64,000 nucleotides of DNA from an uncultured Gammaproteobacteria bacterium (GCA_964411255.1 CAYPKD010000002.1:98141-162140), one strand, 5' to 3'. Counted from the stretch's first letter, positions 550 through 45,478 are shown. Notes: generated by a model not told the origin, from the sequence alone. Made by a program: numbers and translations.

Positions 550-559
550 CACTTTAGCG

Positions 560-595
560 GTTTTTTAATTAAAAAACACTGATTATGAATCAGTG
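560..595 (-). terminator. hairpin CACTGATT-ATG-AATCAGTG with T-run on minus strand (A-run also flanks it on plus strand); probably bidirectional terminator
   Basis: perfect 8-bp inverted repeat at 577-595 flanked by A/T runs, between convergent genes. Confidence 0.5.
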
Positions 596-596
596 C

Positions 597-17522: not shown

Positions 17523-17547
17523 CTTAATAAGTCGTGGCTTTTTTATT
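17516..17547 (+). terminator. intrinsic terminator after the 1475-aa gene
   Basis: GTCATGACTTA-ATA-AGTCGTGGC hairpin (with G-U pairs) followed by TTTTTTATTTG; near-identical terminator after the paralogue at 19863. Confidence 0.5.
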
Positions 17548-17747
17548 TGTAAAAACAGATCAACCCCTCGACTTCGCTCGGGGCAGGCAGATCAGCAACA
17601 GATATAAAACTTTATCAAAAAGGTGAGTTATTTGACTAAATTTAGGTAAATTTTATTAAAACAACTATAATATTGACAAAATAATAAAAATAGGCTAAAC
17701 TCTAATGTTACTGATATTTGACAAATTACGCATTCAGGAGGAAAAGA

Positions 17748-20456: not shown

Positions 20457-20491
20457 TTGATATTGTTTCATTGACAATCAAGGAGCAAATC

Positions 20492-27316: not shown

Positions 27317-30300
27317 ATGAAACAAAAAACAAACATTTGTAAAAAAACTGCCTTAATTATGGCAGGTTTTATTTTTGCCATTTCAATTACAGCATTAATC
27401 GTTGCTGCGCCGGCAAACGCGCAGTCAGTTACCCCTGAGGGGGATAATTCTTATTTGGGCGGAATTGGAACTGATTTCTCACTAGATGATGTCTCTATAA
27501 ATTCCAGTATTCCAATTTATGGCTCAATGTCTGAGGCCAGGTATAATTTTGTACTTTTTAATGTGCAGAGAGCTCCTGGGGCTTCTGCTGATTCGACGTT
27601 TCTAACCATTACAGGATTAATTCCAGACACATCCTATAATGTCCATGAGGACGGGTTTGTACCCCTTGTTTACACTTCAGACTCTACTGGTGAGATTAAT
27701 TTTAACCAGGATATAGGTACTCCTCATACTTTGACGATTAAAACCGACAGCTCAATTTTTGAGATAACCGCAGATTCCACTTGCGGGGATGTTGAAGCTT
27801 TTGGTGGTGTATGTGATGATTCTGGACCAGAATTAAATGTAACCATGCCTGCATCATGTATGATTAATGACTCTGTTTGGATTCATGATTTTTCTGGCAA
27901 TATTTATTTTAACGATTGCACTATCACTGCAAAGCCAGGCTATGGTATAGCCTTGTATCTTACAAATGTCAGCGGAATTATGCGAGACGTAAAAGTAAAA
28001 GCAGCAAGGACGGGAATAGCCTTTGGGGCTGGTACGAAATATTTATATATAGAGAATGTTGAAGTGACACCTACTATAGGCGATGGATTGGAACGAATTG
28101 GTTTTAATTTTGTTGGCCAGGATGTTGAAGAGATTGCCGTATACGACTATGTGTGTAATTTCTTTGAATTACCTTCTGATGTTAACAAGGGAGATATTTG
28201 CGTTTTAGCTCAGGATGGACAATCAAAGATTGATTTTGCATTAGGCACTATTTCTTATTCTGATAGGGGATTTATTTTTGAGAATTCAACTTTTTCATCA
28301 TCTGAAATACAGATTGTCAATACTCAGATTTATCTTAATTATAGCGAGTCTATCGGTCTTAGTTTAAGAAGAGCAAACATCATAAAGTCTACTAATAATA
28401 ATTATCTTTCTTACCCAGGTAATGACATTCCATTTTATAAGGCGATTGAAATAAAAGATGTTCCTTTTGGTGTTTCAGTTAATGATTTTATAAGTATTTC
28501 TGACAGATTTGGCCTTTGTCAATATGGGGCAACTGTAGAAAATGGAAGTAATATTAATTTTATTTCGCCTCACGAGGATCAAGAGACTAGTGCTCAAATT
28601 GCTGGTATTGTTGCTATTGATTCTGAAAATGTGAATATTGTCGGTACTGCAGCTGAACCTTCACTTTTTTACCCAAAGATCTTTGCAAATGCATTTGAAT
28701 ATGAAAACACAACAGGTATAGTAGGTAATTACATGAACGCGACTAGTACGGGTAGGGATCAAACAATTTTTAGAACTGATGAAGGCAATATTATTCTTTC
28801 GACTGACATTGGCTATTATGATGCGGCAGTTGAAATATCAGAAGGCGTGCTGCCTCCTGAAATTTCGCATCTATCAGATGATAGCATTCGTATTAGGAAT
28901 ATAGGGGACGATATAGATATATTATTTTATGATACTTATGGCGTGCCAATTGCACAAGCGCGTCTACACCCCGGAACTGAATTTATGGTATTTCATAATG
29001 AAGACGGCGGTGTTACTGTAGTTAATACCAACCTAGGGTCAGAAGTTACGGTGTTTAGATTGTATGACGATCCTGGTTGGTTTGTTGGCGCTTCTCCAAT
29101 CGGTACTGTGATATCAATGCCTGGAGATGTAATGTCATTTAATTCAGGAAATTCAGTGTATGTAAAAAACGAAGCTGGAAATTGGGATTTGGAGTTATAT
29201 GATAGCAATAGCAATTGGGTAATGAATGTTCCAATGAGCCAGGGAGATCATGTAATGGTTGAGGGAAATGTTGATGGCAGCACATCATTAACCAATGTAA
29301 ATACTTCAGCCCAAGATGTTTATGCTATTGAATGGGTAGAATCAGCAGGTATGCTGACCTTAGATCAAAATGAAACATTATCGGCAATTTCTGGTGTTGA
29401 TGTAGTTAATGTAAATGTAGCTGATGGAGCGATTGATTTAGATATATTAGATGTTGGTAGCCAAATTGCTATTGCCAAAACAGTATTAGCTCAAGGTAGT
29501 CAGGCCAGTCTTGCTGTTAATACTGCCGGTGGCACTGAATTAGTTAATCTAGGCACTGGTGTTTTTGATATAATAATAGATGATCTTGCACAATTCAGTC
29601 TTGAATCAACTGAAGGCGCTGTTTTTTCAGGTACTGTAAAAAAAGATATTACACCGATTTATGGCAATTTTGACATTGAATTTTTAGACAGCCAGGATAC
29701 AGTTGCCAGAGTGATAATGAATGATCCGACTCAGACAGCCAGACTGCAAAGAGATCCAGAAGGCTATGCTAATGTTCAAAATATTTCTCAAACAGAGATA
29801 ACAGTTGAAGGATATGATACAGCCAGAATTAGTAGATCAAGGCTTGGCTATGGAGACACGATTGGATTTAAGAGAGGATCTTTGCAACTAAAAGATACAT
29901 TAGGTTCCTTTGATGTTGAATATATTGCTTTAAATGGCGGAATTGTTGGTGTTACAACATTGCAGAATTTTGAAAAAATGAATTTAACTCATGTTGGCCA
30001 GACTGATGTGCAGGTAGAAAATATTGGCACTGTATCATTTGATATATTGAATCTGTTTACTAATCAGACTGAAACCGTTATTTCAGGTCAAACAACTGTT
30101 GTTATTCCTGGCCCTACTGGCCAGATTGAAGCAAAGGTTAAGGGCGGACATCCAAAGAAAGCGCTGGAATATGCAACTGTGAAAACTTATAATAAAAATG
30201 ACAGCTGTGTTTCTGAATATTTTCCAAATGCAGGACAAGTAAATGAATTTTGCGAACCAGTAGCTATGTGCGTTACTGGAGCAGATGGTAAATGCTTAAT

Positions 30301-30427
30301 GACTGTGTTAGCAGAAGAACATTATTTTGTACTGTCAGAGCATGAAGATTATCTTGGTGATTATTCTAGTCATTCAGTGGGTAAAGTAACAGAAAACAAA
30401 ACAAAGAAGGCAACACTCGTATTTTGA
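27317..30427 (+). CDS. large secreted protein (1036 aa), possible beta-helix/adhesin-like surface protein
   Basis: N-terminal signal peptide (IFAISITALIVAAPANA); Thr/Ser/Asn/Gly-rich beta-strand-like composition; no catalytic motif recognised. Confidence 0.7.
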   Translation: MKQKTNICKKTALIMAGFIFAISITALIVAAPANAQSVTPEGDNSYLGGIGTDFSLDDVSINSSIPIYGSMSEARYNFVLFNVQRAPGASADSTFLTITGLIPDTSYNVHEDGFVPLVYTSDSTGEINFNQDIGTPHTLTIKTDSSIFEITADSTCGDVEAFGGVCDDSGPELNVTMPASCMINDSVWIHDFSGNIYFNDCTITAKPGYGIALYLTNVSGIMRDVKVKAARTGIAFGAGTKYLYIENVEVTPTIGDGLERIGFNFVGQDVEEIAVYDYVCNFFELPSDVNKGDICVLAQDGQSKIDFALGTISYSDRGFIFENSTFSSSEIQIVNTQIYLNYSESIGLSLRRANIIKSTNNNYLSYPGNDIPFYKAIEIKDVPFGVSVNDFISISDRFGLCQYGATVENGSNINFISPHEDQETSAQIAGIVAIDSENVNIVGTAAEPSLFYPKIFANAFEYENTTGIVGNYMNATSTGRDQTIFRTDEGNIILSTDIGYYDAAVEISEGVLPPEISHLSDDSIRIRNIGDDIDILFYDTYGVPIAQARLHPGTEFMVFHNEDGGVTVVNTNLGSEVTVFRLYDDPGWFVGASPIGTVISMPGDVMSFNSGNSVYVKNEAGNWDLELYDSNSNWVMNVPMSQGDHVMVEGNVDGSTSLTNVNTSAQDVYAIEWVESAGMLTLDQNETLSAISGVDVVNVNVADGAIDLDILDVGSQIAIAKTVLAQGSQASLAVNTAGGTELVNLGTGVFDIIIDDLAQFSLESTEGAVFSGTVKKDITPIYGNFDIEFLDSQDTVARVIMNDPTQTARLQRDPEGYANVQNISQTEITVEGYDTARISRSRLGYGDTIGFKRGSLQLKDTLGSFDVEYIALNGGIVGVTTLQNFEKMNLTHVGQTDVQVENIGTVSFDILNLFTNQTETVISGQTTVVIPGPTGQIEAKVKGGHPKKALEYATVKTYNKNDSCVSEYFPNAGQVNEFCEPVAMCVTGADGKCLMTVLAEEHYFVLSEHEDYLGDYSSHSVGKVTENKTKKATLVF

Positions 30428-30447
30428 GAATTTATTAAGATAATATA

Positions 30448-30479
30448 AAACCAGTCTTTAATAGGCTGGTTTTTGTTTT
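30448..30479 (+). terminator. intrinsic terminator
   Basis: AAACCAGTCT-TTAAT-AGGCTGGTTT plus TTTTGTTTT. Confidence 0.55.
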
Positions 30480-30523
30480 AATTCACCTCTATAATATAAA
30501 AGTGTGCAATACTTGACAAAAAG

Positions 30524-30566
30524 GAACCACTGATATAAGATATCCGGTTCCTTGACGTACGCGGTT
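30524..30566 (+). promoter_or_regulatory. promoter (TTGACA, 17 nt, TAAGAT) with 7-bp inverted repeat AGGAACC...GGTTCCT spanning the -10
   Basis: read from sequence at 30524-30566. Confidence 0.3.
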
Positions 30567-30586
30567 AGGCCGCTTGGAGGCAGCCA

Positions 30587-31549
30587 ATGCAATGCAATTT
30601 TGTTAAAGTCGTGATTTTGATAGTCACGTTTGGATGTAGCACCGTATCAAATCAAAAAGCAAAAGAATATGTTGATGTGGTTTATATGGATACTCAAAAA
30701 GATGAATCGAATTCTATATTGGATATAGAAAATGATTTGAATGATCAATATCAAAAAGATTCAGTTGACCAGATTCATTTGGTACAAGATGCAGAAGTAG
30801 GAACAGAATCTGTTCAGGAGATTGAAACTGATCAGACAGATGAAATTGACAGAGTAGGGGATATTCAAATTAAGGATCTGGAGGTCGAGGTTGAGGACAC
30901 TTTTGATACATTCGATTCTGAGGAATTGGGTACATTGGATATTCAATTCGATGAACAACCAGAAGCTGATCAGCAAATACCTGCTCAATTTGTCCAGATT
31001 GTGTTTATTTCAATTACTGAAGATGAACCAAATGTAAACGTCTGCATTGATTCAGCGTTTGCATCATGTTCTGATCCAATTATTACGCCTGTGATTATTG
31101 AATTTGAAGTTAATTCAAGCCATCCTGTTTGCGCTTTTCAGACAGGGTATAATGATTTTTGCTTTATGGTTCAGGTAGGAAATGAACCAATGGACGTAAT
31201 CATTGATCTGGAGCAAACCACACATGCAGATATTTGTCCCTGGATGACGGGCAATTATACATATGATGGCGGAAGTGTCGGGCCTTTTGATGATATTTTC
31301 GTTGTTGTACAGGTAGCCAGTGACCATTGCTTGGTATGTGGTTTAGAGCCGCCGGCTTTTGCTGGTATGTGTCTCATGGCAGTCTATCGCCCTCTAACTG
31401 AAGATTTTATCATTCATTGTTTACCAAATGATGATGCTTGTCCAAATGTTAAATGCGACATTATTCCCTGGCCAGGGATAATTGAATGCACTTACGATGA
31501 TGAATCTGGAATAGAGCAGACCATTTCCTGGCTTCAAGATCTTTTCTAG
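30587..31549 (+). CDS. secreted/lipid-anchored acidic Cys-rich protein
   Basis: N-terminal hydrophobic segment ending FGCS; Asp/Glu-rich middle; many Cys in C-terminal half. Confidence 0.65.
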   Translation: MQCNFVKVVILIVTFGCSTVSNQKAKEYVDVVYMDTQKDESNSILDIENDLNDQYQKDSVDQIHLVQDAEVGTESVQEIETDQTDEIDRVGDIQIKDLEVEVEDTFDTFDSEELGTLDIQFDEQPEADQQIPAQFVQIVFISITEDEPNVNVCIDSAFASCSDPIITPVIIEFEVNSSHPVCAFQTGYNDFCFMVQVGNEPMDVIIDLEQTTHADICPWMTGNYTYDGGSVGPFDDIFVVVQVASDHCLVCGLEPPAFAGMCLMAVYRPLTEDFIIHCLPNDDACPNVKCDIIPWPGIIECTYDDESGIEQTISWLQDLF

Positions 31550-31789
31550 AGTCCTTGTTTCATGAATAAGGGCTTTTTATTTTGGCTTATCCACAAAAAT
31601 GGTGATAAGTCATAAAAATATTAAATATCAAAAATAAAATATCAAATAAAATTTAGACACTTTTTTTATCCACATAATTTTGCTGATTTTATATCTAAAA
31701 TTAGGAAAAAAATGAGATCATCTTGACTTTTATTATATAAAATGATACAGTATATTGTTTAGTAATTCCTGCTTGGAAAGGGGATAATA

Positions 31790-32545
31790 ATGATAGAGCA
31801 AGCTAAATCTAGGAAAATTGGTCTTATCGTTTCCATCATTTTGGTAATAATGTGGATTGTTGTAGCAATTATTGACAGTGTAACGGTTTCTGCACAGAAA
31901 AAGAAGATTCTGGATCTCTGGAAGCAGAAGGAGGATCTACAAACAGATCTTCAGAAGCAGAAGGAGGATCTACAAACAGATCTTCAGAAGCAGAAGGAGG
32001 ATCATCAGGCAAGATATGATTTTGCCATTGGAAAGTTCAGAGAAACCATTAAGAGCGCATCTTTTATCCTTGCAAAATCAGGCCTGGAATTGCCTGAAAA
32101 GTGTTGGGTAAAAAGAAATTTTGAAGTGAATGACGAGCATAACATGCTTGAGATCATTCAGGATTTGTTGGATTGTATTGATTCTGCAATGGAGATGTCA
32201 GAAGATATCAGGGATAATTTGGTAATAAAATTGACTAATACGCAAATTGAGCTGCTCGAGGCTCAAATGAGTCTGAAGCTAATCACCAAATCGTATGAAA
32301 AATGCGAAACCATGGCTAAAGGCGGAACTCATGTATATAAGAAGGCAACAGCCAAGCGCTGGCGTGCCAGTGCATTCCGGTGGAAAAATCAGGTTCAAGG
32401 TCTTGAAGAACAAGTTGAAACCTTGAAGAGAGAAAATGAAGCATTGAGAAATAATCGAAAACCCAGAGTACAAGCACCAGTGCCACATAAGACTCCAAGA
32501 TCATTGGATATACAAGAAAATGATCAAAGGGGTTGTTCAAAATAA
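31790..32545 (+). CDS. membrane-anchored coiled-coil protein with in-frame 33-bp tandem repeat
   Basis: TM helix at residues 10-30; LQTDLQKQKED repeated 2.5 times; 251 aa. Confidence 0.65.
   Translation: MIEQAKSRKIGLIVSIILVIMWIVVAIIDSVTVSAQKKKILDLWKQKEDLQTDLQKQKEDLQTDLQKQKEDHQARYDFAIGKFRETIKSASFILAKSGLELPEKCWVKRNFEVNDEHNMLEIIQDLLDCIDSAMEMSEDIRDNLVIKLTNTQIELLEAQMSLKLITKSYEKCETMAKGGTHVYKKATAKRWRASAFRWKNQVQGLEEQVETLKRENEALRNNRKPRVQAPVPHKTPRSLDIQENDQRGCSK
31921..31999 (+). repeat. 33-bp tandem repeat (GAAGCAGAAGGAGGATCTACAAACAGATCTTCA) x2.4 inside the CDS
   Basis: two perfect copies plus a partial third, read directly. Confidence 0.85.
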
Positions 32546-33025: not shown

Positions 33026-33457
33026 ATGTTTATCGGCGAGTATCAACATAACCTTGATCAAAAAGACAGGCTGGCTGTGCCTGTTAAGTTTAGAGCTAAA
33101 TTAAAGCAGGGTGCTGTTGTCACTCGCGGATTAGATAATTGTTTATTTCTATACCCGCAAGCTGAGTGGAAAAAGTTAGCTGAAAAGCTGGCCTCATTGC
33201 CAATCAGCAAATCAAATACCAGGGCATTCAGTCGGTTTATGCTCTCTGGAGCAATGGATGTAAATGTTGACAAGCAGGGAAGAATAAAGCTGCCGGATTA
33301 TTTAAAAAAATTTGCAGGTATGAAAAAGACCGTTATCGTTGCCGGGCTATATAATCGTTTAGAGCTTTGGGATAAGGAATCATGGAATAAATATAAACAG
33401 GGTACTGAAAAGGCAAGTACAGATATAGCTGAGGAATTAGAAAATCTTGATGTCTAG
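33026..33457 (+). CDS. mraZ: transcriptional regulator MraZ
   Basis: MFIGEYQHNLDQKDRLAVPVKFR... tandem MraZ domain sequence, 143 aa. Confidence 0.9.
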   Translation: MFIGEYQHNLDQKDRLAVPVKFRAKLKQGAVVTRGLDNCLFLYPQAEWKKLAEKLASLPISKSNTRAFSRFMLSGAMDVNVDKQGRIKLPDYLKKFAGMKKTVIVAGLYNRLELWDKESWNKYKQGTEKASTDIAEELENLDV

Positions 33458-33544
33458 ATCCTACGAGATCTACAGATCCTCTACAGATACTACAGATATC
33501 TGTAAAAACAGTGGCAGATCTGTAGATCATGTAGCAGCTAATAT

Positions 33545-34471
33545 ATGACTATTCACAAACCCGTTTTAGTTAAGGAGGTACTTGAATTGCTCGAACCGAG
33601 TAAAAACCAAAATTTTATTGACTGTACATTAGGCGCTGGCGGACACACAAAAGCGTTGCTTGACCAGACGAAGCCGAATGGAAGAATTTTAGCAATTGAC
33701 TGGGATGAAAATGCAGTTGAATCAGCAAAAAATAATTTAAAACAATATTTGCCCAGACTGGTTTTGATAAATGATAATTACACGAATTTAAAAAACATTG
33801 TAGCTGATAATAATTTTGAAAAGATAAATGGTATTTTACTTGATCTGGGATTATCATCAGATCAATTCGCATCATCAGGCAGGGGATTTAGTTTTCAAAA
33901 AGATGAGCCTTTAGACATGCGATATAGCACTGATAGCAGTTTAACAGCTGCGCAAATAATTAATTCATGGTCAGAAAAAGAATTGAAGAGGATTTTTAAA
34001 GAATTGGGAGAAGAAAAAAGGGTTCATAAAATCGCTGCAGAAATAATAAAATATCGCCGGAAAAGAAAAATAAAAACAACTAAGCAATTAGTTGAAATAA
34101 TTCAAAGAGTAAAAGGGAAGCAACAATCCAGAATTCATCCTGCTACCAAAGTATTTCAGGCATTGCGTATAACCGTAAATAATGAATTGGAAAATATTGA
34201 AAGTACATTGAAGCAGGCTATTGAAATAATGCCTTCAGAATCAAAAATCGCAGTTATTAGCTTTCATTCACTCGAAGATAAAATAGTTAAGCATTTTTTT
34301 CAAAAAGAAAGTAAAAATTGCATTTGCCCGCCAGAAATTCCAGAATGCAGATGTGAGCATAAAACCAGTTTAAAAATTAAAACAAAAAAACCGATTATTG
34401 CATCTGAAGAGGAAGTAGCAGAAAATCCTCGTTCAAGATCTGCAAAATTAAGAGTGGCAGAGCGGATATAA
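33545..34471 (+). CDS. rsmH: 16S rRNA (cytosine1402-N4)-methyltransferase
   Basis: HKPVLVKEVLELL...DCTLGAGGHT SAM-binding signature; follows mraZ. Confidence 0.95.
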   Translation: MTIHKPVLVKEVLELLEPSKNQNFIDCTLGAGGHTKALLDQTKPNGRILAIDWDENAVESAKNNLKQYLPRLVLINDNYTNLKNIVADNNFEKINGILLDLGLSSDQFASSGRGFSFQKDEPLDMRYSTDSSLTAAQIINSWSEKELKRIFKELGEEKRVHKIAAEIIKYRRKRKIKTTKQLVEIIQRVKGKQQSRIHPATKVFQALRITVNNELENIESTLKQAIEIMPSESKIAVISFHSLEDKIVKHFFQKESKNCICPPEIPECRCEHKTSLKIKTKKPIIASEEEVAENPRSRSAKLRVAERI

Positions 34472-34495
34472 ACAAAAATAAAATAGAACTTTATT

Positions 34496-34861
34496 ATGTC
34501 TCCATTTTTTAAGTTTCAAAAATGTTCCAGGGCCAATAGGAATGAAGAAAAACCATGCGCCAAAATAAAAATAGGCAATAAATCAAAATTGTTTATTAAG
34601 ATTTTAATCATTATATTTTTAGTTGGTTCAGTATTCTTATATTTACTTCAAATAAACAGCTTGGCAACAAAGGGATTTAAAATTCAGGCTTTAGAAATGC
34701 AGGTAAGTGAATTAAATGAATCCAATAAGAAATTAAGCTTAGAGGCAGTAAGACTAAGATCCATGGCTGAATTAAATGAAAAAGTGCAGAATTTGGATAT
34801 GGTGCCAATTAACAATTTTTCATATATTGATGCAACCTCTACTGGAATGGCAAAAAAATAA
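34496..34861 (+). CDS. FtsL-like cell-division protein (single TM plus coiled coil)
   Basis: position after rsmH; TM helix ILIIIFLVGSVFLYLL followed by heptad region; sequence alone is weak; true start may be internal. Confidence 0.4.
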   Translation: MSPFFKFQKCSRANRNEEKPCAKIKIGNKSKLFIKILIIIFLVGSVFLYLLQINSLATKGFKIQALEMQVSELNESNKKLSLEAVRLRSMAELNEKVQNLDMVPINNFSYIDATSTGMAKK

Positions 34862-34982: not shown

Positions 34983-36050
34983 ATGGCAAAAACAATATCA
35001 TCGATTTTATTAATTGCAGTTATAGTGATTGTCTTATCATTAATCGGCGGTGGCCTTTTTTACTGGTTTTTGACCAATAAAGTGGATGTAGAACCCAGCG
35101 CAGCTTTGCAAAAACAGCAGCAAATATCAACCGAGGACGCGTTGCAGGATATTGAAGAAAAGTATGCATTGTATGAGAATGATGATTTTGGTTTTGAATT
35201 TTATTATCCAGCAAAATGGCTTATTGTTCGAGAAGGATCTGATATGGGAAGCGCTTATGTCCAGTTTGGAAAAAATATGAATCCAGAAGACTTAGTGGCG
35301 CCAGAAGACTTCAAGTTTACGATTTGGGCTAATCCTCCAGGCATGGGATTTGAATATTTAAATAATGTTCTTGAAGAAGATACTATTAACTTTGGAAAAC
35401 CAAGTGTGGAGGCTGACAGAGCTTTGGCAACTGGTGAAGTTGAAGATAAAACAGTAAAAGGTGAAAGACTGCGTTTTAACAGGAATCAAGATTCTTATTT
35501 TATTTTATATCAGGTAGATTTGGATAAATGGGAAGAATATGAGCCATATTTGAAAAAATTCAAGGAGACCTGGAAGTTTGCAGATGAAAATGTAGATATC
35601 CGAGAGTTTTCATATGATGATAAAGCAAATGATTTTAAGGTACTTAAGGAAGCTTTTGATATTAAAGGAACTTTTAGGACTGAGAAGTTGGTTGGACAAA
35701 GTAAAGAATGCGGTACTAATAAAAGTGAAAAATATTTTGAAAAATTAATGTCAGAATATAAGGATGGGGAAAAGGGCGTTGTTTATTCTTTTGAATATGG
35801 TAAAGCATCTCAAAAACCAAGTTATTGGACTATGCAGATTATGCCAAATAGGCTTGGATATAAAAATTTAGATGAATTCAAAAAAGATTTTGATTTTTGC
35901 GCTGCAGGCGGTGTTTATCCATTTGCAGTATCAGAAAATTATCTAGCTTTTTCAATATCTTGCGGTACTGGATTTTCAGACGGATCTGGATTGCCGATTG
36001 GGTGTGAAGAGGTGAGGATAATTGTTGAGCCTTCAATAAAATTAAAGTAA
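34983..36050 (+). CDS. membrane-anchored (N-terminal signal-anchor) protein, member of the paralogous ectodomain family
   Basis: N-terminal TM SSILLIAVIVIVLSLIGGGLFYWF followed by QKQQQ linker and an F-x-F-YP-x-W containing domain like the 36870, 40462 and 41147 proteins. Confidence 0.65.
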   Translation: MAKTISSILLIAVIVIVLSLIGGGLFYWFLTNKVDVEPSAALQKQQQISTEDALQDIEEKYALYENDDFGFEFYYPAKWLIVREGSDMGSAYVQFGKNMNPEDLVAPEDFKFTIWANPPGMGFEYLNNVLEEDTINFGKPSVEADRALATGEVEDKTVKGERLRFNRNQDSYFILYQVDLDKWEEYEPYLKKFKETWKFADENVDIREFSYDDKANDFKVLKEAFDIKGTFRTEKLVGQSKECGTNKSEKYFEKLMSEYKDGEKGVVYSFEYGKASQKPSYWTMQIMPNRLGYKNLDEFKKDFDFCAAGGVYPFAVSENYLAFSISCGTGFSDGSGLPIGCEEVRIIVEPSIKLK

Positions 36051-36148
36051 AGCAAATTAAATAGAAAATCAGCCTAAAGCAGGTTGATTTTTGTTTTGAA
36101 TTAATATTGAGTTTAATCATTGTTAATGCAAGTTCAATTTTTTCTAAA

Positions 36149-36315
36149 CAGGCTAAAGCCTGCTTTGCCCTTTCCAATGTTGGCTTGCGCCAAGTTACTT
36201 TTTGCCACCAAAAAGTAACCAAAAACCGCTGGGGGGCTTCAAATGCGAAGTAATGATTGAGTTTATGTATCGCGCAAGGGGCAATCAGCCCCCCAGACCC
36301 CCGGTGCTATAGAAG
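36149..36315 (+). ncRNA. GC-rich structured element, copy A (candidate novel ncRNA or miniature repeat)
   Basis: ~90% identical to 45314-45478; contains hairpins CAGGC-TAAA-GCCTG, TTGGC-TTGC-GCCAA, GTTACTTTTT-GCCACC-AAAAAGTAAC and GGGGGC-AATCA-GCCCCC; G/C-rich in an AT-rich intergenic region. Confidence 0.3.
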
Positions 36316-36385
36316 ATAAGATGTTTTAAATTTGAAATTTTGGCATGTTTATATATTTACACAGATTTTTTCGCCCGGTTTTCAT

Positions 36386-36877
36386 CTTTATGGTATAATT
36401 AGTAACAGAGAAACAAAGAAATTTATAAAAAGATATATTACATGTCTAATACAATTTTTCGTTTTAGAGAATTCCCTGTATATAACGATGCCAGGAAATT
36501 TAGAGCAGATTTGAAAAAATTATCAAAAGAAAAATTTCCTTCAGAAGAACAATACATTTTAAGAAGACAGCTTTGGCGAGCATTAGATTCAATAATATTA
36601 AATATTGCAGAGGGAGCAGATAAGCATTCTGATAAGGATTTCAGTCATTATCTAAATCATGCTCTTGGATCAATTAATGAAGTTATCGGATGCTTAGATT
36701 GCGCCTTAGATGATTATTATATTGAAATCACTGAACATAAAAGGTATTTAGAACAAGCTGAAAACATTATTAAACAATTAAAAGCATTTATTTCCAAGCT
36801 TAGAAAAGATGATAAACGTTTTTAGTTTTTATTTGTGTTTCTTTGTTTCTATGTGCTTTTGTTAATTTTATGCCAAA
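36386..36877 (+). repeat. ~0.5-kb direct duplication, copy 1 (promoter plus four-helix-bundle gene plus 5' end of next gene)
   Basis: near-identical to 39193-39697 (few substitutions, one 16-bp tandem insertion in copy 2). Confidence 0.9.
36442..36825 (+). CDS. four-helix-bundle protein (23S rRNA IVS protein / Avd-like family)
   Basis: LDSIILNIAEGADKHSDKDFSHYLNHALGSINEV matches the family core motif (NIAEG...S.KDF); extended -10 TATGGTATAAT at 36388-36398. Confidence 0.7.
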   Translation: MSNTIFRFREFPVYNDARKFRADLKKLSKEKFPSEEQYILRRQLWRALDSIILNIAEGADKHSDKDFSHYLNHALGSINEVIGCLDCALDDYYIEITEHKRYLEQAENIIKQLKAFISKLRKDDKRF

Positions 36878-37541
36878 CAAAAAATTTAAACCGTCAATGA
36901 TACCAATTTATGTAATTTTGGCCATTGCTATTATTACAGTCACTTTTTTAATAGTAGGCGGCGCATATTTGTGGCACTATTCTTTAATTACAAAAATCGA
37001 CACTTTAGAGCAAAATCAGGCTGTTTTAGAGCAAAAAATAGAGTATATACAACCAAAGGCAACTGAAGAAGAGATTATTAAAAAAGAAAAAGACAGCATT
37101 GAAGAAGAAGAAAAAGGATTCATCGAAGTAAAGGATTATGAATTTAAATATCCAACTGATTGGATAAAGAAAAAAGCTGAGTATTCGAAATATTCTGATA
37201 GTGTAGATTTTAATTTTTATGATCAATCAAATAATTTAATCGCTATGCTTGCCTGCCCAATACCGGAAATTGGATTTGAAGCAATGATCTACGAAGAGAC
37301 TAAAAGGCATATAAAAAAAAATAATAAGACATATGAAATTTTATTATGGGAAGGTAAAATCAGACCAGAATTGATAGAGCCAGATTTTGATCAGCCTGAA
37401 GAAGAAATGATTATTTTTATGAGAGAAAGCGATTGGCTGGATTCTGGAACAGATAGTTATATGAATTCATGCATGTTAATAATCAGACATTTGGATGACC
37501 TGGTAGGTACAGCTCAAGATATTTATCATTCAATTAAATAA
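36870..37541 (+). CDS. membrane-anchored paralogue (conserved MPNKKFKPSMIPIYVIL... anchor, variable ectodomain)
   Basis: start at the internal Met of the 36843 ORF, by analogy with 37547 and 38400; C-terminal domain homologous to the 41147 protein (YEFKYP..W...GFEAM.YEET). Confidence 0.7.
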   Translation: MPNKKFKPSMIPIYVILAIAIITVTFLIVGGAYLWHYSLITKIDTLEQNQAVLEQKIEYIQPKATEEEIIKKEKDSIEEEEKGFIEVKDYEFKYPTDWIKKKAEYSKYSDSVDFNFYDQSNNLIAMLACPIPEIGFEAMIYEETKRHIKKNNKTYEILLWEGKIRPELIEPDFDQPEEEMIIFMRESDWLDSGTDSYMNSCMLIIRHLDDLVGTAQDIYHSIK

Positions 37542-37546
37542 ATTTT

Positions 37547-38350
37547 ATGCCAAAGAAAAAATTCAAACCATCAATGATACCAATTTATGTGATTTTAGTA
37601 ATTGCTATTATTACAGTCACGTTTTTAATCGTAGGCGGAGCATATTTATGGCACTATTCTTTAATAACAAAAATCGACACTTTAGAACAAAGTCAGGCTG
37701 TTCTACAGCAAAAATTAAATGCTACCGCTGATGCTGAAGAAGATGAAGCTACAGATACTGAAGAAGAAGATGTTGAAGAAGCAGTTCAGCAAGATTTATC
37801 TCCATTAAAATCAGCTATAGAGGCTGAGGAAATAGCGCAGGATTATCAATATAGGCATGGTCAGCTAGAAGGTTTTATTTCACTTGAAAAAGGCAATTCG
37901 CTTGTTTTTGCAAAAAAAGCATTGGCAAAACTGTATGAAAATGAAGAAATTATTCAAGGCTTTTATTTTCCAAAAAGTCCGGCAAATGAAAATGTAATCT
38001 TTTTATCAACCAGCGTGGATGCATATAACCTGAAAACTCCCCATCTAAATAAAATTTATTCTTATAATATAAAAACAGGGGAAATAACTGAACTTTATGA
38101 GGAAAAAGTGACCAATGACCGATTATTGCGAACAATGGGTATTGAAGGATCAAAGCTAATTTTAATGGTAGATATGATTGATAATTCTCCTGGCCCTTGT
38201 TTTTCAATCTGGGCTCATTGGGATGATTTTGAATATCTTGAATTATCAGATGTTAATGCTGGTTTAGAATCTTATAAAGTCCCAGCGTATCAGGTAAATG
38301 AAGGCAGAAAGGAAAGTGAAAAGTGCGAAGAACAAATGAAGCAAGACTAA
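37547..38350 (+). CDS. membrane-anchored paralogue
   Basis: first ~55 aa ~90% identical to the 36870 and 38400 proteins; acidic linker; distinct ectodomain. Confidence 0.7.
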   Translation: MPKKKFKPSMIPIYVILVIAIITVTFLIVGGAYLWHYSLITKIDTLEQSQAVLQQKLNATADAEEDEATDTEEEDVEEAVQQDLSPLKSAIEAEEIAQDYQYRHGQLEGFISLEKGNSLVFAKKALAKLYENEEIIQGFYFPKSPANENVIFLSTSVDAYNLKTPHLNKIYSYNIKTGEITELYEEKVTNDRLLRTMGIEGSKLILMVDMIDNSPGPCFSIWAHWDDFEYLELSDVNAGLESYKVPAYQVNEGRKESEKCEEQMKQD

Positions 38351-38399
38351 TATTTATAACTATCTTTTAAAAAAATAAAAATAATAAATTCGTAACCTT

Positions 38400-39080
38400 A
38401 TGCCAAAGAAAAAATTTAAACCGTCAATGATTCCAATTTATGTAATTTTAGCCATTGCTATTATTACAGTCGCATTCCTTATTGTTGGCGGAGCCTATTT
38501 ATGGCACTATTCTTTAATAACAAAAATTGACACATTAGAGCAAAATCAGGCTGCTTTAGAGCTGGAGATTAAGAAAGCAAAGCCAGAGGCTGATAAAAAG
38601 GTGGAGGAGGTTGATGATGAAGTAGATGGAGAGGATGAAATAGGGGTAACTGATAAAGTATTTGAAGGTGATGGTTTCTCATTCATATATCCAGAAAAAT
38701 TTATTGCTGATGAAAAAGGACTTTGGACAAAAGAAGGATATGACCGCCATATTAATCCGTCCTATGGATGTGATACGTGTCAAATCCCGGAAATTGAAAT
38801 AAAGTCAGTGTCTACTTCTATTTCTTTGGAAAAATACATTCTTTCAGATTATGATTTGCCTGGCAATACCTTAAAGGAGATGACAAAACAAATAAATATT
38901 CCATATTCAACTATGAATCTGGGAGATAATGAGTTTATAAAAATTACTGTTGGAGACATGTATAATTTAACAGGGTATTATACAAAAGATGATAAGAACA
39001 TTGTTGCTTTTAGAGTCTATTTTGACAGTAGAGACACCTCAGAGTTAAGAGAGATTATTTCATCATTAAAGTTTGATTAA
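38400..39080 (+). CDS. membrane-anchored paralogue
   Basis: same conserved anchor; distinct ectodomain. Confidence 0.7.
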   Translation: MPKKKFKPSMIPIYVILAIAIITVAFLIVGGAYLWHYSLITKIDTLEQNQAALELEIKKAKPEADKKVEEVDDEVDGEDEIGVTDKVFEGDGFSFIYPEKFIADEKGLWTKEGYDRHINPSYGCDTCQIPEIEIKSVSTSISLEKYILSDYDLPGNTLKEMTKQINIPYSTMNLGDNEFIKITVGDMYNLTGYYTKDDKNIVAFRVYFDSRDTSELREIISSLKFD

Positions 39081-39192
39081 ATTAATTATACAAAAAAACC
39101 AGCGTAGTTTCTATGTTGGTTTTTTAGTTACAAGGTTGGAATAGAATTTTATTTATACACAAGAAAATAATAAATAATTACAAATATTAGCG

Positions 39193-39697
39193 TTTATGGT
39201 ATAATTAGTAACAGAGAAACAGAAGAACAGAGAAACAAAGAAATTTTTAAAGATATATAACATGTCTAATACTATTTTTCGTTTTAGAGAATTCCCTGTA
39301 TATAAGGATGCCAGGAAATTTAGAGCAGATTTGAAAAAATTATCAAAAGAAAAATTTCCTTCAGAAGAACAATACATTTTAAGAAGACAGCTTTGGCGAG
39401 CATTAGATTCAATAATATTAAATATTGCAGAGGGAGCAGATAAGCATTCTGATAAGGATTTCAGTCATTATCTAAATCATGCTCTTGGATCAATTAATGA
39501 AGTTATCGGATGCTTAGATTGCGCCTTAGATGATTATTATATTGAAATCACTGAACATAAAAGGTATTTAGAACAAGCTGAAAACATTATTAAACAATTA
39601 AAAGCATTTATTTCCAAGCTTAGAAAAGATGATAAACGTTTTTAGTTTTTATTTGTGTTTCTTTGTTTCTATGTGCTTTTGTTAATTTTATGCCAAA
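39193..39697 (+). repeat. ~0.5-kb direct duplication, copy 2
   Basis: see copy 1; contains an extra GAAGAACAGAGAAACA tandem insertion. Confidence 0.9.
39262..39645 (+). CDS. four-helix-bundle protein (Avd-like), second copy
   Basis: identical to the 36442 product except N15K. Confidence 0.7.
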   Translation: MSNTIFRFREFPVYKDARKFRADLKKLSKEKFPSEEQYILRRQLWRALDSIILNIAEGADKHSDKDFSHYLNHALGSINEVIGCLDCALDDYYIEITEHKRYLEQAENIIKQLKAFISKLRKDDKRF

Positions 39698-40445
39698 GAA
39701 AAAGAAAACAAAAAACAAAACAGATTTTAAAATCATTCCATTTATTACAATGGTTATTTCAGGCCTGACATTGCTTTTTGTATTGATTAGCGTGGGTTAT
39801 ATTTTATATTACACAGCAGTGCTTACGCCTATTTTTCAGTTAGCCCAGAATCAAATGATTATACAGCAGGAAATTATTGATTTAACTGATGAGATTAAGA
39901 TAGCGGATGGAGATTCTGATCAAGGTGAAGTTATTCAAATCAGAGAGACCAATGCAACTGACAGCTGGATAGATTATTTTGATAATGATTTAGGAATTGC
40001 CATAAAATATCCAAAAGATTTTTTTCATCAAGAACCAAAGGTTACAGAAATTTCATGTAAAGATGTTAATTTTCCGAGAGAATGTCCCAAAATTGATCAG
40101 GCGGTTGAAGTTGTGACAGGCAGTCCTATTGAAAATTCTTTAGCTGCAGGTTTGCCAACTTCATATTATTGGCATAATCCAAATGGTGAAAAGGTAATGA
40201 TTAATAATGATTCATATTGCTTGTATCGCCATGTTGAAGGAGCAGCAGGTTCCACTTTTGTAAGTTATTATTATACAACCGTTTCGAAAAATATGTGTAA
40301 AGTAATTAATTTAGTTGTAAAATATCAAAATTGTAGTATTCTGGGATCTAAAGGTGATGAGGATTATGAAAAATGTATAATGGAAAATGAACAGACAACG
40401 CCAGATGTGATTGATAAAGTTATTTCAACTTTAGAATTTAATTAA
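39690..40445 (+). CDS. membrane-anchored paralogue (second sub-array)
   Basis: MPKKKKTKNKTDFKIIPFITMVISGLTLLF anchor (start at the internal Met of the 39663 ORF); Cys-containing ectodomain. Confidence 0.65.
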   Translation: MPKKKKTKNKTDFKIIPFITMVISGLTLLFVLISVGYILYYTAVLTPIFQLAQNQMIIQQEIIDLTDEIKIADGDSDQGEVIQIRETNATDSWIDYFDNDLGIAIKYPKDFFHQEPKVTEISCKDVNFPRECPKIDQAVEVVTGSPIENSLAAGLPTSYYWHNPNGEKVMINNDSYCLYRHVEGAAGSTFVSYYYTTVSKNMCKVINLVVKYQNCSILGSKGDEDYEKCIMENEQTTPDVIDKVISTLEFN

Positions 40446-40461
40446 ATATTTATTTATCATT

Positions 40462-41127
40462 ATGCCAAACAAAAAAAACAAAAAACAATTACTAATAGTT
40501 CCATGGATAACAATGATAATTTCAGGTGTAGTTCTGATTTTTGTCATTGTTATTTTCGGTTATTTAGCTTATTACACTACTGTGCTCGAACCAATTTTAA
40601 AACTATCTGACCATCAGGCTCTTTTAGAACAAAAGATTGAAAAAGTGCAGCCAGACGTTGATTTAGAAGAGGTGGTGGAAGAAGATGCTGTTGTTGTTGA
40701 GGAAATGAATGTTTATACTAGTAGGATTTTTGATTTTCAATTTGAATATTCAAAAAATTGGGTTATTGATGATTCATATTCAGATTTATTAAACTTTCTA
40801 TTAGTAAAATTGGAAGATAGGTCAATTACCACAAAAAGTCCGTTTTCTGATTACGCATCATTATGGGTTGAAGTTAATAGTCCAGGTAGGGGAATAGAGT
40901 ATTTTAATACAGTAATCAGCACTGATAAAATTATTGTTGATGGTATTATTGCTGATAGACAGGAAATTTCAGGTATTTATGATAATAATAAAATAAATGC
41001 ATATGTAGTTAGATTTGAAAAGGGAGGCGATTCATATTTCATTCATTATCAAGTTGATTCAAAGAAATGGCAAGAAAATAAAAAGAAATTTAATACTTTC
41101 CTTAGTAGTTTTGAATTTATTGATTAA
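40462..41127 (+). CDS. membrane-anchored paralogue
   Basis: anchor MPNKKNKKQLLIVPWITMIISGVVLIF similar to 39690; ectodomain resembles the 34983 protein (FDFQFEYSKNW). Confidence 0.65.
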   Translation: MPNKKNKKQLLIVPWITMIISGVVLIFVIVIFGYLAYYTTVLEPILKLSDHQALLEQKIEKVQPDVDLEEVVEEDAVVVEEMNVYTSRIFDFQFEYSKNWVIDDSYSDLLNFLLVKLEDRSITTKSPFSDYASLWVEVNSPGRGIEYFNTVISTDKIIVDGIIADRQEISGIYDNNKINAYVVRFEKGGDSYFIHYQVDSKKWQENKKKFNTFLSSFEFID

Positions 41128-41146
41128 TATTTTGACTTAAAAAAAT

Positions 41147-41854
41147 ATGCCTGAAAAAACCAAAACAAATAAACCAGATAATAAATCCGCATTTAACGCC
41201 TGGGCGCTTATTGCAGCAATTTTAATTACAGTTATTTTTGTCGGAATTATACTGATCTGGCAAAATAATGCAATGAAGCAATTAAAAAATGAAGTTGCTG
41301 GCACTCAGAAAACTTTATCTCAAAAAGTTGAGAAAATTGAAAATGGAACATCTAAAGAAACAGTAGTAACTGAAGCAGAAGCAGATCCAACAGAAGATTG
41401 GGAAACATTTAGTATTGCTGGATATGAATTCATTTATCCAGATAGCTGGACTTATACTGAGCAGGAATCGCAAGTTCCAGGCCAGACTATTTATGGATTT
41501 TACGATGAAAATGATGTTAGAGTAGGATTATTGTTTACGCCTGTTTTAGAAACCGGATTTGAAGCTATGGTTTATGAAGAAACAAACCGACTTTATAAAA
41601 AGAAAGATGATGTCTACACAATAAAATTATTAGAAGGCCGGCCAGATTTAACTGAATATCCGGAATATTATGAGCAATTACCTGAAAAAGAAATGATTAT
41701 TATAATGCAGGAGAAAAAGCCTCCTCAGGAGTTTTATCAGGGGGATTTCCCGGAAAGTTTGTCTGATGATGGTTCAGTTTTATTAATTATTAGAAATTTA
41801 GATGAAACAACCATGGTGGAGATAGCAGATCTAATTTATGAATCAATAGAGTAG
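41147..41854 (+). CDS. membrane-anchored paralogue
   Basis: TM anchor; C-terminal domain homologous to the 36870 protein. Confidence 0.65.
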   Translation: MPEKTKTNKPDNKSAFNAWALIAAILITVIFVGIILIWQNNAMKQLKNEVAGTQKTLSQKVEKIENGTSKETVVTEAEADPTEDWETFSIAGYEFIYPDSWTYTEQESQVPGQTIYGFYDENDVRVGLLFTPVLETGFEAMVYEETNRLYKKKDDVYTIKLLEGRPDLTEYPEYYEQLPEKEMIIIMQEKKPPQEFYQGDFPESLSDDGSVLLIIRNLDETTMVEIADLIYESIE

Positions 41855-41855
41855 T

Positions 41856-42422
41856 ATGATTAAATCAAGAGCTATAATTTTAGTATTTGTATTTTTAATT
41901 ATTGGTGTAGGCATATATTTGCTATACCTTGGTTTAGAGGATACTGAAATAATTCCTGATGATGGTAAAATTACAAATTTTGAACAGTGTGCTGCTGCTG
42001 GTAATCCAGTAATGGAAAGTTATCCACGGCAATGCAGAGCTGATGGTCAAACGTTTGTAGAGGAAATTGATGATATGCCTGCAACAGAAGACGAAACCAT
42101 AGATGTTAATCAAAAAGATTTAGATCCCTTGGATGATCTTGGGAATAGCGCTCAATTAGCCAATCCTGCATCAGTCTATTGTGAACAAGAGGGTGGTGAG
42201 ATAGAGAATAGGGAATTTGAAGATGGTACTGCAGGGTTCTGCCTGTTTGAAGATGGTTCAGAATGTGGGCAATGGGCATTTTATAGAAATGAATGCAATC
42301 CTGGCCAGAATTTTTGCAAAGATATGTGTGGTGATGGCAGATGCGACGAAGTGGTTTGCGAGGCTGTAGGCTGTCCGTGTGGTGAAACACCAAAAGGATG
42401 CCCTGCTGATTGCCGGAAATAA
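41856..42422 (+). CDS. membrane-anchored Cys-rich protein with DUF333-like (putative hemolysin) module
   Basis: ANPASVYCEQEGGEIE...DGTAGFCLFEDGSECGQWAFYRNEC resembles the DUF333 consensus (from memory). Confidence 0.55.
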   Translation: MIKSRAIILVFVFLIIGVGIYLLYLGLEDTEIIPDDGKITNFEQCAAAGNPVMESYPRQCRADGQTFVEEIDDMPATEDETIDVNQKDLDPLDDLGNSAQLANPASVYCEQEGGEIENREFEDGTAGFCLFEDGSECGQWAFYRNECNPGQNFCKDMCGDGRCDEVVCEAVGCPCGETPKGCPADCRK

Positions 42423-45283: not shown

Positions 45284-45313
45284 TAAATTTAATAATATTT
45301 ATTTTTACTTATG

Positions 45314-45478
45314 CAGGCGAAAGCCTGCGTTGCCTTTTCCAATGTTGGCTTGCGCCAAGTTACTTTTTGGCGCCAAAAAGTAACCAAAAACCGCTGGGGG
45401 GCTTCAAATGCGAAGTAATGATGATGTTTCCATCTCGCTCCGGGGGCAATCAGCCCCCCAGACCCCCGTTGCGATAGA
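45314..45478 (+). ncRNA. GC-rich structured element, copy B (candidate novel ncRNA or miniature repeat)
   Basis: paralogue of 36149-36315; here CAGGC-GAAA-GCCTG and the perfect 26-nt palindrome GTTACTTTTTGGCGCCAAAAAGTAAC; bracketed by terminators at 45257 and 45502. Confidence 0.3.

Follow-up and report, generated by a model that had tools for sequence, protein, structure and literature searches.

Organisation of the locus

The window, that is the whole 64-kb stretch of DNA analysed here, belongs to an AT-rich, small-genome uncultivated bacterium and encodes, between positions 34983 and 42422, a lineage-specific tandem family of eight ORFs, all on the + strand (Table 1). The initial annotation counted nine genes but listed eight starts; these starts stand, and the count is eight. 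Two further ORFs, each encoding 127 aa, lie among the array genes. The array would be organised as a single gene (34983) and two transcription units, each with the same extended -10 promoter and with a terminator hairpin between them. Comparisons were made with L004, a syntenic contig of a related species, which is the sole informative relative.

Table 1. Positions of the array genes, the four-helix-bundle (4HB) cassettes and the associated signals
Feature	Position	Strand	Remarks
Array gene 1	34983..36050	+	355 aa; TM anchor at the N-terminus, next a domain with PsbP-like motif, C-terminal domain with Cys; L004 orthologue 92% aa
Terminator-like hairpin 3' of gene 1	36064..36092	+	
Promoter P1, extended -10 (TTTATGGTATAAT)	36387..36399	+	The array's own, not the cassette's: present in L004 without 4HB gene
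4HB cassette, copy 1	36400..36868	+	Stands where the native leader of 36870 would be (-10 box to ATG)
Cassette 1, 5' arm	36404..36421	+	Octamer-type repeats AACAGAGAAACAAAGAAA
4HB protein, copy 1	36442..36825	+	127 aa; PF05635 / TIGR02436
Cassette 1, 3' arm (TTTCTTTGTTTCT...)	36838..36863	+	Complementary to 5' arm; long-range stem closed in MFE and centroid folds
Array gene 2	36870..37541	+	223 aa; conserved 5' module 36870-37037; PsbP/Mog1-fold ectodomain (modelled), paralogue of 41147; ectodomain missing from L004 sub-array 1
Array gene 3	37547..38350	+	267 aa; conserved 5' module 37547-37714; L004 orthologue 84% aa
Array gene 4	38400..39080	+	226 aa; conserved 5' module 38400-38562; PsbP/Mog1-fold ectodomain (modelled), missing from L004
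Terminator-like hairpin closing sub-array 1	39090..39128	+	-17 kcal/mol; stem better in L004
Promoter P2, also TTTATGGTATAAT	39193..39205	+	Present in L004 without 4HB gene
4HB cassette, copy 2	39206..39688	+	5' arm with two extra octamers
Cassette 2, 5' arm	39218..39243	+	
4HB protein, copy 2	39262..39645	+	127 aa; N14K vs copy 1
Cassette 2, 3' arm	39658..39683	+	26 nt, 88% complementary to 5' arm
Array gene 5	39690..40445	+	251 aa, 6 Cys; L004 orthologue 85% aa
Array gene 6	40462..41127	+	221 aa; PsbP_2/PsbP match weak but over the whole domain; paralogue of 34983; L004 retains the N-terminal 123 aa only (56%)
Array gene 7	41147..41854	+	235 aa; paralogue of 36870; L004 orthologue 85% aa
Array gene 8	41856..42422	+	188 aa; TM anchor, DUF333, Cys-rich tail; L004 orthologue 82% aa

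Each array protein has, as previously described, a basic N-terminal flank followed by a single strongly hydrophobic N-terminal segment (Kyte-Doolittle 2.6-3.0), and these proteins are probably type-II (N-in, C-out) membrane-anchored envelope proteins, as far as topology can be read from sequence. Conservation of the N-terminal anchors holds for 36870, 37547 and 38400 (71-91% aa identity) and, more weakly, for 39690 and 40462 (~50% over 60 aa), whereas the other genes have only the architecture in common. The shared 5' sequence reported for 36870, 37547 and 38400 was recovered by self-BLAST (88-91% identity over 156-174 nt), and no other repeats of this type occur in the 64 kb. The paralogous modules differ from one another at 16-30 sites in 165 nt, mostly synonymous and in a mosaic pattern, and the orthologous pair 37547/L4_7296 shows 26 differences in the 5' module; paralogues are thus as similar as orthologues, which fits gene conversion.

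Ectodomain families and their turnover

The ectodomains proved less heterogeneous than the "different C-terminal domains" of the initial annotation. Indeed, (i) a common strand motif, hxFxYPxx[WF], stands at the start of six of the eight, and (ii) the two that were modelled (36870 and 38400) adopt one fold, PsbP/Mog1-like, a similarity resting on a confident model. The genes 36870 and 41147 share 34% identity over 236 aa, and 34983 and 40462 share 29% over 217 aa, in line with the homologies proposed earlier, and the gene 41856 matches DUF333 in Pfam (E=5e-16, 59.1 bits, cut-off 25), as had been suspected. All matches to PsbP and PsbP_2 in Pfam lie under the gathering score (best E=0.001-0.016, 15-19 bits vs a cut-off of 27), including that of gene 34983 to PsbP_2 (E=0.0056), and profile-profile alignment between ectodomain classes covered the first strand motif and nothing more. 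Most ectodomains would be very divergent PsbP/Mog1-like modules and one a DUF333 module, the homology between classes being modelled at the fold level for two members only. The nearest comparison in terms of fold is with envelope PsbP/Mog1-fold proteins (mycobacterial LpqN, Mtc28 and Apa; DcrB; DUF1795/PsbP_2 proteins); in contrast to these, the window proteins are tethered by a TM helix and a coiled linker rather than a lipobox, their genes stand in tandem with a common 5' module, and their sequence matches fall under Pfam cut-offs. The ectodomain of 38400 shares 50-56% identity with single-copy lipoproteins and TM proteins, differently anchored, in other bacteria.

The same array, with both sub-arrays and both TTTATGGTATAAT promoters, is encoded in L004, which has no 4HB gene. 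Full-length orthologues were found there for five of the eight window genes. Two ectodomains are specific to the window and four to L004, all of them behind the same MPxKKFKPSMIPIY... anchor, and one further ectodomain, that of 40462, has been replaced, its match in L004 being limited to the N-terminal 123 aa. Judged from these sequences, the ectodomains are swapped between related species, a modular mode of evolution. The family would undergo birth and death through recombination, unequal or illegitimate, and through gene conversion, both acting at the conserved 5' anchor-linker module. These processes would delete, duplicate or replace ectodomains, including modules that are elsewhere single-copy lipoproteins or TM proteins, and would yield envelope-protein repertoires that differ between related species, on an evolutionary timescale rather than through a programmed switch. 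The locus offers an envelope-protein family, in a small-genome uncultivated lineage, that exchanges its outer domains while the membrane anchor stays fixed, and its genes are plausible candidates for contact with the host or the environment.

The earlier proposal of a surface-protein diversification system based on recombination stands as regards the exchange of ectodomains behind a conserved 5' module, which is seen between species, and finds no support as regards a programmed system with the 4HB genes as a part of it. In a dedicated system of this kind, the Avd-like protein would have an accessory part, and cassette exchange by recombination within the population would take place at the conserved 5' segments. 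The conserved 5' modules with ectodomain content varying among relatives, the same head on both sub-arrays and the nucleic-acid binding of Avd-type proteins in diversity-generating retroelements (DGRs) (PMC10053308) would agree with it. It is nevertheless very unlikely: L004, with no 4HB gene at all, shows this array and this turnover too, homologous 4HB cassettes are found in unrelated operons of many phyla, and neither a recombinase nor silent cassettes nor phase-variable tract differences were found in the window and L004. Indeed, Pfam scans detected no recombinase in the 64-kb window; each of the array genes is intact, having a start and an anchor of its own, which leaves no silent cassettes; and the poly-A tracts that follow the ATG are in frame in 14/14 genes of both genomes, with no frameshift. 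The gene shuffling expected within the population was not observed either, as at least nine contigs of the window's population have one arrangement with the same neighbours (in short-read assemblies, where rare variants would be missed), and nothing therefore indicates programmed switching.

A second explanation, that the locus is part of a DGR whose reverse transcriptase (RT) and template repeat lie outside the window, finds a point in its favour in the 4HB protein, which belongs to the family that includes Avd. We regard it as extremely improbable. In agreement with the initial annotation, Pfam scans of the array genes and of ~35 other ORFs of >=110 aa (~45 ORFs in total) revealed no RT in the 64-kb window and self-BLAST revealed no TR/VR pair; none of the repeat pairs listed by self-BLAST has A-biased mismatches, their mismatch spectra being unbiased. 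Moreover, the variable parts are whole domains instead of a short C-terminal VR, and the relatives of the cassette are standalone genes with no RT adjoining. The Avd-type 4HB protein is thus the one DGR component present in the window.

The 4HB cassettes

The two 127-aa proteins, which differ by the single residue listed in Table 1, match PF05635 (E=4e-25, 88.5 bits, cut-off 33.8) and TIGR02436 (E=8e-25, 87.2 bits, cut-off 24), which upholds their description as Avd-like four-helix-bundle proteins. The ~0.5-kb unit reported as duplicated was found at 36387 to ~36886 and at 39193 to ~39706, with 98.5% identity over 480 nt and, besides substitutions, a 16-nt (two-octamer) indel in the leader. 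A closing stem is predicted in the MFE and centroid folds of both cassette copies (z=-2.4 and -3.1); 6 nt separate the 3' arm from the downstream start codon.

At both equivalent sites L004 has TTTATGGTATAAT, then a unique ~55-nt leader, then ATG. The leader at site 1 ends in ATTCGTARCCKT-ATG, a motif found also in front of 38400 and L4_10036, two paralogues that have no cassette, and the empty state is on these grounds taken as ancestral. Since L004 has the promoters and sub-arrays without 4HB genes, and since the cassette replaces a native leader of ~55 nt, the presumed "heads" of the sub-arrays are derived and dispensable, and a 4HB gene is not a fixed part of each sub-array. The cassette was thus probably acquired in the window lineage, a polarity based on parsimony and on the leader motif in one relative, from which the order of events is also deduced. 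A ~470-nt PF05635 cassette would have replaced, at the first gene of one unit, the leader that runs from the -10 box to the start codon, and would then have been copied into the equivalent place of the other. This copying is apparently recent, judging by the 98.5% identity of the cassette copies, compared with 24% for the genes that they head, and by the patchwork of differences from the assembly L001 described below. Gene conversion would keep the two copies alike, the cassette would ride on host transcription, and the long closing stem would be a putative RNase III-type processing site that parts the cassette from the flanking RNA.

The duplication, called almost perfect earlier, is so in this assembly. 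Sites within the 4HB genes distinguish the window from three other assemblies, one of which, L001, spans both copies. The window and L001 differ at seven positions over 14.9 kb, six of them inside the two 4HB genes and in a patchwork pattern; the 4HB copies of L001 are ~97.7% identical. The near-identity of the copies is therefore assembly-specific and could be partly an assembly consensus effect. That the duplicated head as a whole is an artefact of metagenome assembly, from a collapsed or mis-joined repeat, is hardly credible, even if assemblies differ from one another mainly in the two cassette copies and many 4HB homologues lie on ~1-kb contigs, as is usual for assembly-breaking repeats. 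Both copies have unique flanks on each side in L001, an independent 164-kb assembly, a separate 4.4-kb assembly (L002) holds copy 1 and the start of copy 2, and the copies differ by the indel and substitutions mentioned above.

The cassette may be selfish in nature; the equivalent promoter-proximal sites of both copies could instead reflect selection for a regulatory role. A domesticated cassette would have been retained in both leaders to co-regulate the two sub-operons, through its stem and RNase III-type processing or through 4HB pentamer-repeat binding. Both copies lie exactly between -10 box and ATG, the 3' arm stops just short of the start codon, the next start codon follows the 3' repeats of relatives elsewhere at a median distance of <=42 nt, and the stems are predicted to be stable, all of which would suit such a role. 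We consider it rather unlikely, however, because L004, lacking the cassette, presumably expresses these operons from the same promoters, and because the contexts elsewhere share no function. The locus is probably best read as two independent things superimposed: a modular envelope-protein array, and IVS-like 4HB cassettes that were recently inserted and then copied. Accordingly, an "Avd-like" gene beside variable surface genes is not in itself evidence of a diversification machine, and is here a recent passenger.

Relatives of the cassette and comparison with known systems

Relatives of the 4HB gene were surveyed at 46 loci from Patescibacteria, Omnitrophota and other phyla; homologues sharing 60-78% identity with the window protein are all PF05635 members. 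Cassettes of this class are widespread: the 4HB ORF lies between tandem 7-8-nt repeats upstream and their reverse complement downstream, wedged tightly between co-oriented, unrelated genes. Neighbours are co-oriented upstream in 30/33 and downstream in 29/32 cases, with median gaps of 55 and 42 nt, respectively, and the genomic contexts are mutually unrelated, with no common function. Nearly all loci have a repeat period of 7, 8 or 14, and the repeat unit depends on the lineage, the inverted symmetry being kept. A flank duplex with z<-2.5 was detected in 29/46 loci; in the other 17 the bracket is absent, and thus not universal, or was missed through ORF boundaries or the 120-nt flanks. No rRNA was detected with Rfam in the window and in 40 related loci.

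At another locus (L012), a PDDEXK_3 gene wedged between genes has inverted arrays of tandem repeats of this kind on either side. Small PDDEXK_3 (GxxExxY) genes belong to another protein family, with no member in the window, and share the bracket type, which suggests a common "shell" able to carry different cargo (4HB, PDDEXK_3). Free-standing 4HB genes, very common in uncultivated bacteria, look like stem-bracketed, operon-resident cassettes built like rRNA intervening sequences (IVSs), a concrete and testable picture.

The array recalls the vsp, vlp and vsa families of Mycoplasma, in which tandem genes of small-genome bacteria have a highly conserved 5' export/anchor region and a divergent remainder, and the window genes likewise combine a conserved 5' region with divergent remainders. 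In contrast to those families, the window yielded no site-specific recombinase, recombination sites or phase-variable promoter tract, inspection by eye showed no internal repeat domains, and variation of the array is seen between species only, with none within the population.

The 4HB protein, in turn, is small and basic like Avd, which is of the same PF05635-like four-helix-bundle superfamily (PMC10053308). It differs from DGR Avd in that the window has no RT, TR/VR pair or adenine-specific mutation pattern, and in that the gene is missing from L004, which has the same array.

The closest counterpart of the cassette is the S23p IVS of 23S rRNA (Coxiella burnetii, Leptospira). In Coxiella the IVS measures 428 nt, its two ends pair in a stem of 28 bp, variable heptamer repeats precede the S23p ORF, and RNase III carries out the excision (PMC4990558). 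Elements of both kinds have (i) a length of ~430-480 nt with a PF05635 four-helix-bundle ORF, (ii) complementary termini that would form a long stem around the element, (iii) a variable number of short tandem repeats immediately 5' of the ORF (GACAGAT heptamers in Coxiella, octamers such as AACAGAGA in the window) and (iv), by analogy, a place within the host transcript. The window cassette differs in lying in the leader of a protein-coding operon and not in helix 25/45 of 23S rRNA, in being flanked by a promoter and a protein-coding gene, and in having arms made of 7-8-nt repeat arrays. In architecture it may be viewed as a non-rRNA counterpart of the S23p-encoding IVS, and excision by RNase III may be envisaged on the same analogy. 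As a tentative extension, in which we place low confidence, PF05635 cassettes could belong to a class of small mobile "operon-riding" elements, undescribed so far and spanning phyla. Such an element would have a short ORF (4HB, apparently also PDDEXK_3) within lineage-specific inverted 7-8-nt repeat arrays, would insert into leaders or between genes of like orientation, and would be cut out of the RNA via the closing stem; in the window they would have captured the leaders of both array operons, possibly gating their expression, and the IVS of 23S rRNA would be their rRNA-resident special case.

Two coinciding phenomena and the organisation of the array

The sequence features claimed for this locus in the initial annotation are, as a whole, real. 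The apparent 'system' is the coincidence of two phenomena: (i) a family of PsbP-like, membrane-anchored envelope proteins that turns over fast and has a recombinogenic 5' module (the conserved anchor-linker start), and (ii) two recent copies of a four-helix-bundle (4HB) cassette, resembling an intervening sequence (IVS), which occupy the leaders of the array's two operons.

The eight plus-strand array genes that had been listed, named here by their start positions, were all found in this AT-rich window (30-38% GC), along with two 127-aa ORFs (Table). All array proteins contain one N-terminal hydrophobic segment with Lys/Arg ahead of it, from which an N-in, C-out topology is predicted by the positive-inside rule. 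Across 156-174 nt at their 5' ends, genes 36870, 37547 and 38400 show 88-91% identity, close to the ~90% first reported; 36870 and 41147, as well as 34983 and 40462, for which homologous ectodomains had been proposed, are full-length paralogues, and 41856 does carry DUF333. No further copies of the 5' modules, of the duplicated 0.5-kb unit or of the paralogue sequences were detected in the 64 kb. Since the terminator-like hairpins after 34983 and 38400 are each followed by a TTTATGGTATAAT promoter, the array is composed of a single gene and two transcription units. Phase variation at the poly-A tracts located 3' of the start codons was rejected, these tracts being in frame in all genes, without frameshifts. 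An FtsL/DivIC-like reading of the anchor-linker was likewise set aside, as it had sub-threshold matches alone (E=0.007-0.09). Profile-profile comparison of the ectodomain classes (the parts C-terminal to the anchor) aligned the first strand motif alone, with probabilities of 3-60%, and a common origin of all ectodomains thus lacks sequence support; a PDB sequence search with the 37547 protein was empty.

Features of the window and amino acid identity of orthologues on L004, the syntenic contig of a related species
Feature	Position	Remark	L004 orthologue
INT_rpt (PF14882) repeat proteins (1475 and 714 aa), first interval	13095-19862	internal DNA repeats	
INT_rpt (PF14882) repeat proteins, second interval	20471-22294	internal DNA repeats	
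Three genes (1036, 320, 251 aa)	27317-32545	between tsaD-like gene and mraZ	
33-nt tandem repeat	31921-32003		
mraZ-rsmH-ftsL	33026-34861		
mraZ	33026	upstream of array	
rsmH	33545	upstream of array	
ftsL-like gene	34496	last gene ahead of array	
Array gene	34983		92%
Terminator-like hairpin	36064-36092	after 34983	
~180-nt repeat, near cassette	36137-36313	intergenic	
0.5-kb unit, first	36387-~36886		
4HB gene, copy 1	36442-36825	127 aa	
Array gene	36870		
Array gene	37547		84%
Array gene	38400		
Terminator-like hairpin	39090-39128	after 38400	
0.5-kb unit, second	39193-~39706		
4HB gene, copy 2	39262-39645	127 aa	
Array gene	39690		85%
Array gene	40462		
Array gene	41147		85%
Array gene	41856	DUF333	82%
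Na+/H+ exchanger	42593	after array	
~180-nt repeat, other copy	45301-45478	intergenic	
PBP transpeptidase gene	61762-63564	nearest to mraZ-rsmH-ftsL	

The gene after ftsL is usually ftsI. In the window this place is taken by the envelope-protein array; a penicillin-binding protein (PBP) gene lies ~20 kb beyond the exchanger, and the gap from mraZ-rsmH-ftsL to the nearest PBP transpeptidase gene is ~27 kb. The three genes ahead of mraZ have no Pfam family above cut-off and are missing in L004, where ~470 nt separate the tsaD-like gene from mraZ. The two large INT_rpt proteins are followed by a ResIII/DEAD helicase with DUF4379 zinc fingers. A GC-rich intergenic repeat of ~180 nt is present in two copies (89% identical) with a stable predicted fold (z=-3.1), and the copy near the cassette had no match in Rfam. 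At the same site L004 carries no more than the right third of it, a pattern suggestive of a small RNA or a MITE-like element.

Turnover of ectodomains between related species

Among 5.8 billion proteins, a search found only eight homologues of the 36870 protein, and four of these are encoded by one 12.9-kb contig, L004. This contig is syntenic with the window, at 81-94% nucleotide identity, and its FtsL protein is 98% identical. Its gene order is tsaD-like, mraZ, rsmH, ftsL, then an ORF of 355 aa, a group of 296, 260(269), 228, 257(266) and 286 aa, a group of 252, 234, 235 and 188 aa (the last with DUF333), and finally the exchanger. Five array genes have orthologues there (Table). No counterpart of the 36870 and 38400 ectodomains was found on L004, four L004 ectodomains are missing from the window, and 40462 shares its first ~123 residues with L4_10036, a gene of L004, and nothing beyond.

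The window and L004 together have eight 5' modules of the 'MPxKKFKPSMIPIY' type, all of which differ at 16-30 of 165 nt; most of these differences are synonymous, and they form mosaic blocks. In comparison, 26 differences separate the modules of the orthologous pair 37547/L4_7269. Paralogous modules are therefore as similar as orthologous ones, while their ectodomains are unalignable, which probably reflects recombination or gene conversion acting on the module. The proposal of a recombination-based diversification of surface proteins gains from this pattern and holds as turnover between species only.

Scanning metagenomes with the N-terminal module recovered L004 again and one 1.2-kb contig (L070), and no further array variants. 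L070, which ends in the module, represents a third, more distant relative: its module gene (1126-1214), ~82% identical in nucleotides to the N-terminal module, adjoins a 291-aa ORF (98-973, minus strand) that was judged by eye to be a putative DDE (rve-type) transposase.

Pfam scans of about 45 ORFs, i.e. the array genes and ~35 others of the window, found ribosomal proteins, RpoA, glycosyltransferases, GlmS, INT_rpt repeat proteins, a helicase, L,D-transpeptidase, SOD, OGG, TGT, CYTH, SPFH and PBP, and no reverse transcriptase, integrase or invertase, in agreement with the claimed absence of a reverse transcriptase at the locus. A signature of diversity-generating retroelements (DGR) in the repeats was rejected, as the mismatches are without adenine bias.

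Cassettes in the operon leaders

The duplication of the 0.5-kb unit was verified (98.5% identity over 480 nt), with a 16-nt indel in the leader, and both 127-aa proteins are indeed four-helix-bundle proteins, members of PF05635/TIGR02436. The ORFs lie between complementary arms, AACAGAGAAACAAAGAAA ... TTTCTTTGTTTCT, which in copy 2 measure 26 nt and are 88% complementary. Both copies have a closing stem in their MFE as well as their centroid fold (z=-2.4, -3.1); an Rfam search with the cassette gave no match. At least nine contigs encode the exact 4HB protein and the product of 36870 (P0001), with the same neighbours; an exact look-up of the copy-2 protein gave no record. One of these contigs, the independent assembly L001, matches the window at 99.95% identity, and six of the seven differences over 14.9 kb fall within the two 4HB genes. 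Their distribution leaves the two copies in the window more uniform than those of L001, which indicates either gene conversion between copies or assembly mixing. The 33-nt tandem repeat also differs in copy number between the two assemblies.

The initial annotation had an identical Avd-like gene as the head of each sub-array. As a constitutive feature this does not hold: junction alignments place both TTTATGGTATAAT promoters in L004, each followed by a ~55-nt leader of its own and then the ATG, and no 4HB gene is present on this contig. In the window, the cassette substitutes for all sequence from the -10 box to the T before the ATG. The L004 leader at site 1 terminates in ATTCGTAGCCGT-ATG, and this motif also stands ahead of the cassette-free genes 38400 and L4_10036, so that the cassette-free leader appears to be the native state. 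The 4HB genes thus appear to be derived and dispensable, not constitutive heads.

The cassette family and its known relatives

With the 4HB protein alone as query, GTDB genomes gave no matches; an alignment-based scan found 50 loci with relatives, of which 44 were analysed with the two window copies (46 loci). The relatives belong for the most part to Patescibacteria and Omnitrophota, which makes a CPR-type bacterium a plausible source of the window; the closest relatives of the protein share only 60-78% identity with it and come from many uncultivated phyla. At the three loci examined first, the 4HB gene lies between unrelated co-oriented genes (HD / CTP-transferase; UDP-glucose dehydrogenase / epimerase; giant surface protein / TSP3), in each case with octamers in tandem on either side, (NNAGAAAC)n upstream of the gene and (GTTTCTNN)n downstream of it. 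Neighbours are co-oriented upstream in 30/33 and downstream in 29/32 cases, and the median distance is 55 nt from the upstream ORF and 42 nt from the start codon that follows; no rRNA was found in 40 loci examined.

Of the by-products of the analysis, this bracket of inverted short-repeat arrays, which extends across the family, is the most interesting. In 29 of the 46 loci the 120-nt segments on the two sides pair as a duplex with z<-2.5, and the repeats have a dominant period of 8 or 7/14. The repeat unit is lineage-specific (GAAAC, GAAGAAC, TTGACA and GGAATAAC types), and the downstream array is the reverse complement of the upstream unit despite these changes between lineages. The commonest upstream pentamer recurs downstream as its reverse complement at least twice in 14 loci, in the same sense in two, and within the ORF in none. 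Two loci, L038 and L023, carry same-sense repeats on both sides of the 4HB gene. A bracket of the same kind (1757-2310) encloses a PDDEXK_3 (GxxExxY-type) gene (1856-2266) at locus L012, between a 278-aa gene and a 448-aa UDP-glucose dehydrogenase-family gene, with tandem ~8-nt repeats (..CGAAT..) upstream and the reverse complement (ATTCG..) downstream.

The literature on PF05635, TIGR02436, S23p and 'four helix bundle protein' covers the DGR/Avd link, the Coxiella IVS and insertions in CPR rRNA, the last of which contain PF05635 ORFs (PMC11270868). No description of repeat-bracketed free-standing (non-rRNA) cassettes was found in the searchable literature, which is thin on pre-2000 IVS work. 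The S23p IVS of Coxiella 23S rRNA, an element of 428 nt that RNase III excises, ends in a stem of 28 bp and carries variable heptamer repeats ahead of its ORF (PMC4990558); the architecture of the cassette agrees with it in several respects.
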